Assembly: GCF_041248615.1 (NCBI RefSeq)
Contig: NZ_CP158426.1
DNA length: 64,000 bases
From: Escherichia coli
Lineage (GTDB): Bacteria; Pseudomonadota; Gammaproteobacteria; Enterobacterales; Enterobacteriaceae
Reading direction: 5' to 3' (one strand)
This document shows, piece after piece, positions 45,001 to 48,000 of the stretch. Position numbers: made by a program. Each line of letters opens with the position of its first letter. Position 1 is the stretch's first letter.

Positions 45001-48000
45001 GAGAAAATGTAAAAATATCAGATAAGGCATCTTTTTATGGGTGTGATAATATTAGTATTGGGAATAATGTAAGGATTGATGATTTTTGCGTGTTTTCAGC
45101 TGGAGAGGGTGGTATTGATATACACGATTATATTCATATAGCGGTATATTCTTCAATTATTGGCAAAGGAAAAGTAACTATATCTGACTACGCAAACATT
45201 TCATCTCGAGTCTCAATATATTCCAGTAACGATGATTATTCTGGCAATTATATGTCTAATCCAGTAGTTCCAAGTGAATATACGAATATACATAGCGGTA
45301 CTGTATTTATAGGCAAACATGTTATCATAGGTTGCGGAAGTATTGTTCTTCCGGATGTTATTTTACATGAGGGTGCAGCAATTGGAGCTCTTTCTGTAGT
45401 CAAAGAGGATTGTGAAGCTTTTACGGTAAATGTAGGTATACCAGCTAAACCAATATCTGAAAGAAGCAAGAAATTATTGGAGCTTGAATCTGTATTTAAA
45501 CCAAGCGCTATTGGAGATAATCTGTGAAGATTCATATTTATTTTCGGCATACGGATATTAGTCGGACAACTAAAAATAATCGGCCTGAGTGGTTTAGTCA
45601 TGAAAATTGTTTTATAAATCTTATAAATACAATAAAAGAATCTAAATATAAAGACCAAATAGCATTTACTTTTATTTTTGATGGATCATTAAACGTTGCT
45701 TCCTTAGATCCGTTATATCAACACTTTGAAAATATCGATATGAATAATAAAAAGATATTCATAATCAATGGAGGAGATCAGCGCAAAGCATGGCGTGAAT
45801 GCGTAAAACTAGTAGATGAAGATCGTCGAGTTGGAAAAATTGATAAAAATGATTTAATATATTTTTTAGAAAATGATTATTTGCATGAGTCTAAATGGAT
45901 TGATGAGATATTTAACTTGGTCAAATCAAATATAAGATGGGATATGGCAACGCTTTATGATCATCCAGATAAATATAGTGAATATTGTGAACATCTTGAT
46001 TCATTAAAAAATAAAAACAAAAAAACTATTGTATTTTATTCTGGGAGTAGGCATTGGAAAATAGCACCAAGTACATGTGCAACATATATTATGAAAGCCA
46101 GGGTTTTTGATAGGACAAAAATAATTCTAAAATTAGCTATTTACGATTACAAATTATTTTTGATACTTACTAAAATATTTAGAATTAGACTTCTTTCACC
46201 TATCCCCGCTCTTTCAACTCATTGTATGGCTTCTTTGTTATCACCTTCAATCAATTGGGATGATTTATAATGGATTGTAAAAAAAAATTATGCATTGTGG
46301 CCTGTTCTTATACTTTAAAGCCAGAATTCATAATTAATAAATTATATAATTATTTACCAGATTATGAACTAGATGGTGTTGTGATTTCCAATAATCATGT
46401 AGTAGAACAGATTACAATGAAGGGATTTCATATCGAAAACGGGACAAATTCTCTTTTTGAGTTTTCTGCCTATAAGGAAGGAATAGATTTTTTAGAAGAT
46501 AGCTCATTATTACCATCAGGAGTACCAATTCTCATTTTGAATGATACATTGTTCTTGAAACATAATGCAAAATTCTTTTTAAGGAAAATTGTGAGTTATT
46601 ATTCAACAATTCAAAGAACTGAATTGCCTACAATGGCAGGTCGTTTAGATCCTTATAATAATATATGTTACAGTAACCCTTGGAATAATATGAATGGCTA
46701 TATATCTTCCTTTTGTATGCTAATAAATGAAAAATCTGCAAAAATAATTGTTAGTTGCTACAATGAGCTTCCAAAATATTTTTTTAGTAATGATATTGAT
46801 ATTATTGACCCCAAATGGGGAATGCAGATTGAATCAAGACTGAGAGAATTTATTCGTAGTCATTTAATTGATATAGACACAGATACGGTTTGGTATCAAG
46901 CTAAATTGTTACATAATGATAAACAACGAATTAATATTAAAGCTCAATGTGTCTTCATGGAACATTTCATATCAGGGAAGATTGGTGAAAGTGGAATTGT
47001 TGTTTCTATTTTTCCCACATGGAAAGGAAAGGTGTTAAATTTTTTAAACGAGCAATTGGCTAAAATCAAGAGGAAGATTATAATTAAATGAGGAAAAATT
47101 TTTACACGACACCAATCACATTACTAATTCTTACGCTTAATATTGCTGCAACAATTGTAGTTATAAACAACAGTGAATTATTGATTGGCGATTTAATGGG
47201 GTTTAAATCAGAAACTGTCGTAATAATTCAATCTCTAATTTATATATCTCTTAGCTTATTATTTCTATCGGTATTATATAATGGATTGGAAAAAATAAAA
47301 CCACTTACAACAAAATTAGCTGATTCTAATAGTAGACCGATCGCCATTTTTTTAATTTGTTTAGAATTATTATATATAACATACGTATTTAATACAGGCT
47401 TATTTGTTGCCGGTAATAATGAGCGCGGAGGCGGAGTAATTTCAGCGTTATTTGTATTACTGAATGTTGATGTACTTGTTTTAATATTTCTAACACATGT
47501 TAAAACAAGTAAGTACAAGCCCATTATTATCATGTTGTGGATTATTTCTTTTCTTCAGCGTGGTTGGATATCTTATTTTTTCATTTTGATTTTAATCTCA
47601 TTTATCGATCGTCGATTGAAAAACAAAAAAAATTGGAAAGCTGGGGTAGTATTAATATGTTTTATTCTGGCTCTGCCATTTGTAGAACAGATTAAGAATT
47701 CTATCAGAAGTGGCGAAGCTATCAGCACGCAATTAACTTTTTTTGATTATGCGGATTCTTTTAATCAACAATTTATGAAGGTTGTTGGCAGAGTTCAAAC
47801 AGTTTCACACGTTGCATTTATAACAGATAATATTAATCAACTTCAGAATTTAAAAAATAATGGAGAATCTACTGATTTTTTTGAAGAAAATTTTATTTAT
47901 ATAATTGCTAAAAAATTAGGGAGTGCTGATGATAAGATTAATACTCCAGATTTGCTTGCCAGATATATTTCTCCATCTCTGGATAGCTCATGGAATGTGA

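Follow-up and report, generated by a model that had tools for sequence, protein, structure and literature searches.

Glycosyltransferases (GTs) of O-antigen assembly have repeatedly founded families in CAZy, among them GT99, GT102, GT103 and GT137 (PMC11231755), so that a new family from such a gene cluster would be useful but unsurprising. Here, two open reading frames (ORFs) of the Escherichia coli O7 O-antigen cluster, named ORF-A and ORF-B, are analyzed in a window of 64,000 nucleotides from contig NZ_CP158426.1 (assembly GCF_041248615.1), the whole stretch of DNA to which all positions below refer. The O7 repeat unit is given as Qui4NAc-Man(Rha)-Gal-GlcNAc in a passage of PMC7857678 that cites L'vov (1984), where Qui4NAc is N-acetylviosamine (VioNAc), Man mannose, Rha L-rhamnose, Gal galactose and GlcNAc N-acetylglucosamine. 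Four cluster-encoded transferases are therefore needed, and only two of them, a GT2 and a GT4 enzyme, are recognizable. An earlier note, made from the sequence of the window, had proposed the two ORFs as the missing VioNAc and Rha transferases from outside the catalogued GT profiles. Predicted folds and comparative genomics lend support to this proposal, except that the ORFs are not devoid of GT-A features, and both are very probably GT-A-fold transferases too diverged for sequence databases. It is considered fairly probable that both are GT-A Leloir transferases that complete the O7 unit in the following roles (dTDP, deoxythymidine diphosphate):

45524..46270, + strand: ORF-A, 248 amino acids, GTG start, WP_000690820.1 ("glycosyl transferase"); predicted GT-A-fold inverting dTDP-Qui4NAc (VioNAc) transferase
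46270..47091, + strand: ORF-B, 273 amino acids, ATG start, WP_001590297.1 ("hypothetical protein"); predicted GT-A-like N-terminal domain followed by a family-specific helical C-terminal region; proposed inverting dTDP-L-Rha:Man alpha-1,3-rhamnosyltransferase

We take these genes to be wbbA and wbbB of Marolda et al. (1999); literature searches on the two names gave only unrelated same-named proteins of Klebsiella, Serratia and Aeromonas. Both genes have long been known as putative transferases. New here are the fold assignment, the motifs, the division of labor and the true extent of the ORF-B family, and two earlier ideas are corrected, one on the C-terminus of ORF-A and one on ORF-B as a "sugar polymerase".

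The GT2-like GT-As of the PF00535 clan (WbbD, SpsA, GlfT2, TarP) share with both ORFs a GT-A Rossmann-like fold, an acidic motif (in ORF-B a single Asp) after beta4 at the DxD position, a length of about 250-300 amino acids, the absence of a transmembrane segment and the setting in an O-antigen operon. They differ from the two proteins in several respects: ORF-A and ORF-B stay below every Pfam/NCBIfam threshold and have ~5-13% identity to solved GT-A structures; ORF-A has E-N-D instead of D-x-D; and ORF-B has N-D-T, an Asn (N41) at the position of the nucleotide-binding Asp, and, at its C-terminus, a helical extension of ~100 residues for which no solved structure gives an alignment. The WbbL-type GT2 enzymes (E. 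coli O16, K. pneumoniae O12, Mycobacterium) are metal-dependent inverting GT-As that use dTDP-beta-L-Rha to place alpha-L-Rha on an acceptor linked to undecaprenyl-diphosphate (Und-PP) (PMC10375533, PMC11231755). The reaction class is the one proposed for ORF-B, but ORF-B has no detectable sequence similarity to them and matches neither TIGR01556, a rhamnosyltransferase model of NCBIfam, nor PF00535, its proposed acceptor is Man in a trisaccharide rather than GlcNAc-PP-Und, and NDT stands in place of DxD. The N-D-T of ORF-B is also reminiscent of the Bacteroides GT6 enzyme BoGT6a, a metal-independent GT-A with N-x-N for D-x-D (PMC3961637), although GT6 enzymes are retaining and use uridine diphosphate (UDP)-linked GalNAc or Gal, no sequence relationship is detectable, and ORF-B keeps one Asp (D92).

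Predicted Fold and Motifs of ORF-A

At the level of sequence profiles, both proteins are silent. As single sequences they match no Pfam or NCBIfam family at E <= 1 beyond noise and no PDB sequence, and their family profiles gave only noise against PDB sequences and Pfam/NCBIfam, while in the same library searches the flanking genes were recognized as DegT, Hexapep, Wzy_O6_O28, GT4 and GT2. No clear match to a known non-GT family appeared in Pfam/NCBIfam for either protein, and hhalign of the two families against each other detected no paralogy. The statement of the earlier note that the ORFs carry no GT-A DxD/Rossmann signature thus holds for profiles (Pfam, NCBIfam and PDB sequences). It does not hold for the AlphaFold models, which are both of GT-A type and matched GT-A enzymes in the Foldseek fold search, nor for the motifs, as the invariant E116-N117-D118 of ORF-A occupies the DxD position and N91-D92-T93 of ORF-B the same place.

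The ORF-A family comprises at least 524 full-length homologs. In an alignment of 82 of them (A2, 32-88% identity), the invariant residues are R20, P21, F24, N32, E116-N117-D118-Y119, W125, Y145-D146, Y151, H177-W178, C185, D208, T232-H233 and W245. The AlphaFold (AF2) model is confident, with a predicted local distance difference test score (pLDDT) of 95.2 and a predicted template modeling score (pTM) of 0.93, and shows the single alpha/beta/alpha Rossmann-like domain of the GT-A topology with a DxD-type acidic motif, in its ExD variant, at the C-terminal end of beta4. Against PDB, Foldseek returned 86 matches at E <= 1e-3, overwhelmingly GT-A glycosyltransferases or related nucleotidyltransferases. 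The top matches are GnT-I and POMGNT1 (GT13), followed by XXYLT1, LH3, COLGALT1, HAS, GlcAT-P, TarP and RmlT; E-values are ~1e-5, query TM-scores (TMq) 0.5-0.59 and identities 8-14%, and the classes include GT13, GT8, GT2, GT43 and GT27. GnT-I and POMGNT1 (1fo8, 1fo9, 1foa, 5ggf; E ~1e-5, TMq 0.53-0.58) are inverting enzymes with E-D-D, a Glu-first variant of DxD, and attach a sugar in beta linkage to mannose O-2. They differ from ORF-A in being eukaryotic Golgi proteins that use UDP-GlcNAc, with ~8% identity and no detectable sequence-profile relationship. The following elements of ORF-A stand out:

45680..45685, + strand: D53-G54 ("FDG" motif), nearly invariant; putative nucleotide-binding Asp, the likely equivalent of the GT2 "DG"
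45869..45880, + strand: E116-N117-D118-Y119, ExD variant of the DxD metal/diphosphate motif; invariant (n = 82), directly after strand 111-116
46151..46267, + strand: C-terminal 39-40 residues (P226, P228, L230, T232-H233, M235, P241, W245), a conserved, structured part of the fold

The C-terminal 40 residues had been described in the earlier note as low-complexity, with the suggestion that the true protein could be shorter. This was refuted. The Shannon entropy of this segment is 3.61 bits (average of the protein, 3.78); the residues form the best-conserved segment of the protein (majority fraction 0.59 against 0.50 elsewhere, and 0.71 in block 221-240), with the invariant T232, H233 and W245; occupancy among homologs is 99.9%; and pLDDT is 94-98. 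Because these residues are conserved, present and confidently modeled, the possibility of a shorter protein is excluded. Within this segment, H233 may be the "C-His" metal ligand used by many GT-A enzymes.

Judged from the model, ORF-A belongs to the GT-A enzymes as a diverged member with an ExD motif, and its identity as a GT-A-fold transferase is regarded as highly probable. The idea of an unclassified GT family is right in so far as the protein lies outside the catalogued GT profiles. It is too strong in another respect, since ORF-A appears to be a remote offshoot of the GT2-like clan: PF00535 is weakly matched by 16 of the 82 relatives (best E 3e-6), while the protein of the window itself gives no PF00535 match even at E <= 1 (Pfam gathering threshold, 23.3 bits). 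The most fitting description of ORF-A is that of a remote GT-A enzyme, GT2-like/GT13-like, on which a vioA-linked subfamily can be defined.

Linkage of ORF-A to vioA

The donor of ORF-A was approached through genomic context, by searching the six-frame ORFs of 80 genome loci containing relatives with the proteins of the window. Among relatives with at least 31% identity, a VioA ortholog (E 1e-117 to 1e-201) was present in all 21 informative loci, which come from Kluyvera, Sphingomonas, Rhodoferax, Polynucleobacter, Polaromonas, Limnohabitans, Massilia and others. VioA gene and ORF-A relative are never more than 5 kb apart, and 11 of the 21 pairs lie within 300 nt. A 22nd locus (L032), without VioA, was left out, as it is cut off 90 nt upstream of the gene. 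Adjacency to DegT was also seen in independent look-ups in Pandoraea, Polaromonas and one unassigned metagenome contig. The Rml, Man, GT2 and GT4 queries co-occur with ORF-A relatives far less often than VioA, and the baseline for vioAB is 3 of 184 E. coli O-serogroup clusters (PMC4379981). Complete O7-like clusters with both ORFs occur in Kluyvera and further taxa.

VioB is often replaced by other acyltransferases in these loci, so the ORF-A subfamily probably handles Qui4N with various N-acyl groups. Homologs of the O7-type wzy adjoin ORF-A/ORF-B relatives in L008, L012, L029-L032 and L101, which fits VioNAc as the residue extended by Wzy. From its tracking of vioA across genomes, ORF-A is most likely the VioNAc transferase.

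Some side observations concern further relatives. About 35 of the 80 loci (within L038-L089) hold ORF-A relatives of 27-32% identity in metagenome-assembled genomes (MAGs) of environmental Chlamydiae, none with vioA. One of them (L039:7950-8699) lies in a small glycan cluster in the order NUDIX, ORF-A-like, GT2, GT2 and methyltransferase, with housekeeping genes around. At L010:8001-8687 (ENA ERZ27249340, protein P0090), the relative is found with DegT, a PglD-like acyltransferase, a TylF-type methyltransferase and several GT2-like genes, and Glyco_hydro_19 and holin genes directly downstream of this block suggest a phage or prophage context.

ORF-B Family, Motifs and Predicted Fold

A word-indexed search had made ORF-B look like an orphan of ~10 members restricted to Enterobacteriaceae. 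That picture reflected a limit of sensitivity and was rejected: tblastn found a 35%-identical relative adjoining an ORF-A relative in Pandoraea apista, six distant loci came from a scan of metagenomes, and an exhaustive search of 1.84 billion representatives gave a family of 556 at E <= 1e-3, 162 at E <= 1e-10 and 49 at E <= 1e-30, most of the 556 being 250-300 amino acids long and matched over their full length. Two alignments were used to find the motifs, A3 with 12 sequences and A5 with 72 diverse members of 15-43% identity. In A5, N91 is invariant and D92, G124, N153, W208, K224 and E231 are at least 90% conserved. Pfam GT families were matched by none of the nine members of alignment A1 and none of the 72 of A5. 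The motifs are as follows:

46540..46548, + strand: N91-D92-T93, within L88-N-D-T-L94...H98; family signature at the DxD position, after strand 87-91, invariant in A3
46639..46656, + strand: G124-R-L-D127-P-Y129, a conserved loop with a candidate catalytic base; G124, D127 and Y129 invariant in A3
46960..46977, + strand: E231-H232-F-I-S235-G236, a C-terminal helical motif, invariant in A3 and outside the part alignable to solved GT-As

The AlphaFold model (pLDDT 85.7) consists of a beta-alpha-beta N-terminal domain and a helical C-terminal third, and its Foldseek matches are weak but uniformly GT-A or nucleoside diphosphate (NDP)-sugar transferases, in agreement with a GT-A-type fold. Nucleotidyltransferases of the same superfamily (IspD, MobA-like) score like GT-As in this search, and ORF-B might accordingly be a nucleotidyltransferase or another nucleotide-dependent modifying enzyme (IspD/MobA/GlmU-like) with no part in sugar transfer to the O unit. 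We regard this as very unlikely: the glycine-rich GxGxR-type loop, which follows beta1, is absent from the first 40 residues in 12 of the 12 family members checked, all O7 nucleotide-sugar pathways are already complete in the cluster, the reported O7 unit has no extra substituent calling for such an enzyme, and the best profile alignment is with GT2, in the canonical GT register. ORF-B is thus placed as a member of a GT-A-derived family, uncatalogued in Pfam/NCBIfam, with an N-D-T signature, and GT-A-fold transferase identity is considered likely.

RefSeq names ORF-B "sugar polymerase" in many genomes (including the E. coli B/BL21/C copies, H44-H54) and "hypothetical protein" in others. Wzy-type polymerases are polytopic membrane proteins with about 10-14 transmembrane helices. 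ORF-B has a soluble, globular alpha/beta model and no transmembrane segment (maximal 19-residue Kyte-Doolittle hydropathy 1.32, against 2.76 for the neighboring Wzy), and the true wzy is the next gene; the name was rejected as a likely propagated mis-annotation. A related and quite improbable explanation is that ORF-B is non-catalytic, a pseudo-enzyme or an accessory partner of ORF-A or Wzy, and that Rha is added by another enzyme. The many copies bearing the polymerase name, the position beside wzy in all loci examined, the missing canonical DxD and a Sphingomonas MAG fusion without beta1/alpha1 (the first ~30 residues) would fit this. The cluster, however, holds no other candidate for the Rha transferase. 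Conserved polar residues lie at the canonical GT-A active-site positions, N91 and D92 being kept as stated above among members down to 15% identity, and the protein lacks the transmembrane segments of real polymerases. ORF-B is also retained across cluster types with unrelated wzy genes, the O7 Wzy matching nothing in L002, L004 and L006, and the fusion, found in a single MAG, is possibly an assembly artifact.

Outside O-antigen clusters, a full-length ORF-B homolog was found in a tailed-phage genome (L092:8925-9752, Logan SRR28397377, P0132; hhalign probability 98.6%, E 1e-15). It keeps F-N-D-T-L-F-T-K-H, adjoins a 2OG-Fe(II) oxygenase gene near lysis and baseplate genes, and may be a glycan- or DNA-modifying transferase; a scan of viral contigs in IMG/VR gave no further copies of ORF-B relatives. 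An apparent "fusion" ORF of 678-707 amino acids in L100 was dismissed as upstream read-through in high-GC DNA.

Donor of ORF-B

The donor of ORF-B follows from the assignment of the other transferases. WbbD has been shown experimentally to be a beta-1,3-Gal transferase (Riley, 2005, as reported in a passage of PMC4202792). GT4 is a retaining family, and a GT4 enzyme with dTDP-beta-L-Rha yields beta-L-Rha (PMC6802508); from GDP-alpha-Man (GDP, guanosine diphosphate), such an enzyme would therefore give alpha-Man. On the part of O7 itself, the relevant linkages can be put as follows. Both alpha-Man and alpha-L-Rha are reportedly present in the polymer, as L'vov et al. are said to have described in 1984. 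The GT4 enzyme then fits Man, and ORF-B would have to be an inverting Rha transferase.

Genomic context points the same way. Clusters with ORF-B but neither vioAB nor ORF-A occur in E. albertii (L002/L003), Enterobacter hormaechei (L004/L005), Hafnia (L006) and two untyped E. coli genomes (one of them H41, EC20-72C-1), in the order rmlBDAC, a different GT4, wzx, an unrelated wzy, ORF-B, a WbbC-like GT4, a WbbD-like GT2 and manCB. Since ORF-B is kept in these rml and man clusters, it goes with the Rha/Man/Gal module and is not the VioNAc enzyme. This cluster type predicts an O unit with the Rha-Man-Gal-GlcNAc core of O7; no published structure was found for it, and it is apparently untyped. More generally, ORF-B relatives lie in glycan clusters dense in other GTs.

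The same clusters bear on the possibility that roles are swapped, with ORF-B as the mannosyltransferase and the GT4 enzyme as the rhamnosyltransferase, or that ORF-B adds a housekeeping sugar elsewhere and Man in O7. Across all enteric loci and several non-enteric ones, manC accompanies ORF-B no less consistently than rml does, and a GT-A fold can be retaining or inverting, so that alpha-Man transfer would be compatible with it. A swap is nevertheless unlikely. In that case the retaining GT4 would turn dTDP-beta-L-Rha into beta-L-Rha, as described for this family (PMC6802508), and this conflicts with an O7 unit in which, in the account attributed to L'vov, Rha is alpha-L-linked. In all enteric ORF-B clusters, moreover, the GT4 gene is kept at 48-56% identity beside a WbbD-like GT2, as expected for a Man-Gal-GlcNAc core. 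ORF-B is therefore retained here as the probable Rha transferase, and its assignment together with that of ORF-A to VioNAc is held with moderate confidence.

The two families also meet in distant genomes. Relatives of ORF-A and ORF-B are adjacent in Pandoraea (L008) and in L101, and in a Sphingomonas sp. MAG (QFPK01000016.1, L012:8001-9506) a single ORF of 501 amino acids, found with a hidden Markov model (HMM), consists of an ORF-A domain followed by an ORF-B domain. The ORF-B part lacks the first ~30 residues (HMM positions 30-268); a wzy homolog is next, and the locus also has a WbbD-like GT2, vioA and manC. The ORF could be a real Rosetta-stone fusion or a product of MAG assembly. Adjacency and fusion fit two enzymes decorating the same mannose, and the fusion is the source of the idea that ORF-A and ORF-B might form a physical complex.

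Proposed Assembly of the O7 Unit

In the proposed pathway, ORF-A and ORF-B would act as soluble or peripheral cytoplasmic Leloir GT-A transferases that complete the O7 repeat unit on Und-PP. WecA would add GlcNAc-1-P first; WbbD (GT2), whose activity is established in the literature, would next add beta-1,3-Gal; and the GT4 enzyme would add alpha-Man from GDP-Man, as its family's retaining mechanism suggests. In the last two steps, presumably in this order, ORF-A would move Qui4NAc from dTDP-alpha-D-Qui4NAc onto the mannose with inversion to a beta linkage, and ORF-B would move L-rhamnose from dTDP-beta-L-Rha onto the same mannose, again with inversion, to give the alpha-L-Rha side branch. E116-x-D118 of ORF-A, probably with H233, may bind a divalent metal and the dTDP diphosphate, and the nucleotide-sugar site of ORF-B is predicted to be built around N91-D92-T93. 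What the analysis itself shows is the class of fold, the conserved motifs with their places and the patterns of gene co-occurrence; donors, acceptors, metal dependence, catalytic residues and the sequence of the final two transfers are inferred.

A number of points weigh against these assignments. No biochemical or genetic test of either gene was found in the accessible literature, and neither was a full anomeric structure of O7 (composition and branching only), so that the argument from inverting and retaining mechanisms depends on the linkages said to be present. For ORF-A, hhalign against a WbbD-type GT2 alignment is non-significant (E 0.04, probability 1.3%) and was used for the motif register only, in which D53 falls on D45 of the WbbD type ("DG") and E116-N117-D118 on D96-S97-D98. 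Relatives at 27-33% identity in environmental Chlamydiae, Verrucomicrobia, Bacteroidota and Pelagibacter lack VioA; the wider family thus has no single common donor, the link to vioA is limited to the subfamily, and these distant proteins presumably use other donors. Conversely, vioA occurs without any ORF-A relative in the E. coli clusters O39 and O116, which implies that other enzymes also can transfer VioNAc, presumably in other linkages. For ORF-B, the assignment in O7 was made by elimination. Distant loci (L100, L102-L104) have no rmlC or rmlD nearby, and those of Pandoraea and Sphingomonas have no rml genes within 8 kb, so that Rha specificity need not extend to the whole family. The DxD position holds a single acidic residue (D92) instead of two; some GT-A enzymes with NxN there are catalytically active (PMC3961637). 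The hhalign link of A5 to GT2 is weak (E 1.2e-3, probability 20%), and the smaller A3 gave nothing. The register of the A5 alignment is canonical: it pairs the beta1 "CSY" with GT2 beta1, N41 with the nucleotide-binding Asp, "EFSAY.EG" with the G-loop and D92 with WbbD D98.

A further-reaching picture can be offered tentatively. ORF-B may be a GT-A-derived inverting L-rhamnosyltransferase, or more broadly a 6-deoxyhexosyltransferase, with N-D-T for DxD, Asn for the nucleotide-binding Asp and a unique helical domain for the acceptor or membrane, possibly in complex with ORF-A, and ORF-A might then represent a dedicated viosamine-transferase family.

O7 is a clinically relevant serogroup of extraintestinal pathogenic E. 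coli (ExPEC), its cluster is carried in disrupted form by E. coli B/BL21, and it serves in glycoconjugate vaccine production (PMC7857678). The assignment of genes to sugars would open the way to rational glyco-engineering, such as a truncated or Rha-less O7 unit or the placing of VioNAc on other glycans. It would also correct the widespread "sugar polymerase" and "hypothetical protein" annotations and define two GT-A families that current profile libraries miss. The vioA-linked ORF-A subfamily may be of use as a marker in genomes and metagenomes of proteobacteria, where it would point to viosamine-containing glycans, and the ORF-B family (~550 clusters, N-D-T), if shown to be active, would be a candidate for a new CAZy family of GT-As without a canonical DxD. 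The general picture of Wzx/Wzy-dependent O-antigen assembly is unchanged; an annotation gap is filled and no new kind of biology is implied.

Reading Frames and Gene Layout of the O7 Cluster

The window carries the E. coli O7 O-antigen cluster. The 1,568-base stretch covering ORF-A and ORF-B is 100% identical in 96 complete E. coli genomes, in which the genes flanking them are annotated vioB and "O7 family O-antigen polymerase". It forms the central, low-GC part of the cluster (GC content 28.5% in ORF-A and 29.1% in ORF-B, against 48.7% in the whole window). The lengths, the GTG start and the positions described for the two ORFs before this analysis were borne out by ORF calls and by RefSeq, which gives identical coordinates, and so was their place between vioB upstream and wzy downstream. 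Translational coupling to the neighbors could be read directly from the sequence as stop/start overlaps: GTGA at 45524-45527 between vioB and ORF-A, TAATG at 46268-46272 between ORF-A and ORF-B, and ATGA at 47088-47091 between ORF-B and wzy. The GTG start of ORF-A is backed by 50 of 82 homologs that start at the same aligned residue and by GGAG ~8 nt upstream; the consensus N-terminus of the family is "MxIHIYYRH". A promoter/terminator scan of 42.0-50.5 kb gave no signal above shuffled expectation, and together with the overlap at all three junctions this places both ORFs in a single operon. The other genes of the cluster are:

38858..42398, + strand: rmlB, rmlD, rmlA, rmlC, dTDP-L-rhamnose synthesis (proposed ORF-B donor); ORFs and RefSeq rfbBDAC; RmlA and RmlB also supply the VioNAc precursor
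43835..45527, + strand: vioA and vioB, dTDP-Qui4N and then dTDP-Qui4NAc (proposed ORF-A donor); Pfam DegT 1.8e-100, Hexapep, RefSeq names
47088..48263, + strand: wzy, O7-family O-antigen polymerase; NCBIfam Wzy_O6_O28 2e-80, RefSeq name
48260..49372, + strand: GT4-family glycosyltransferase (retaining), assigned as alpha-mannosyltransferase; Pfam Glycos_transf_1 5.5e-31, Glyco_transf_4, RefSeq "glycosyltransferase family 4 protein"
49362..50189, + strand: wbbD, GT2, UDP-Gal:GlcNAc-PP-Und beta-1,3-galactosyltransferase; Pfam GT2, RefSeq name, biochemistry as reported in a passage of PMC4202792
50186..53008, + strand: manC and manB, GDP-mannose supply; ORFs and RefSeq annotation

The cluster of the O7:H15 genome NZ_CP102244 runs rfbBDAC, wzx, vioA, vioB, ORF-A, ORF-B, wzy, GT4, wbbD, manC, manB (cpsG), gnd and ugd, with ORF-A labeled "glycosyl transferase" and ORF-B "hypothetical protein". 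The O7 cluster is also carried by E. coli B/BL21 and E. coli C. In B strains an insertion sequence (IS) element lies between manC and wbbD (PMC3446290); in the window the two genes overlap, with no insertion separating them, and manC is intact (474 amino acids, 50186-51610). By comparison, manC is annotated as frameshifted in NZ_CP102244 (L001:13663-15086), as are manC and also vioA in the O39 strain F8704-2 (L093). Downstream, a frame of 391 amino acids (53385-54560, - strand) runs antisense within gnd (53172-54578, + strand) and is most likely a spurious open frame.

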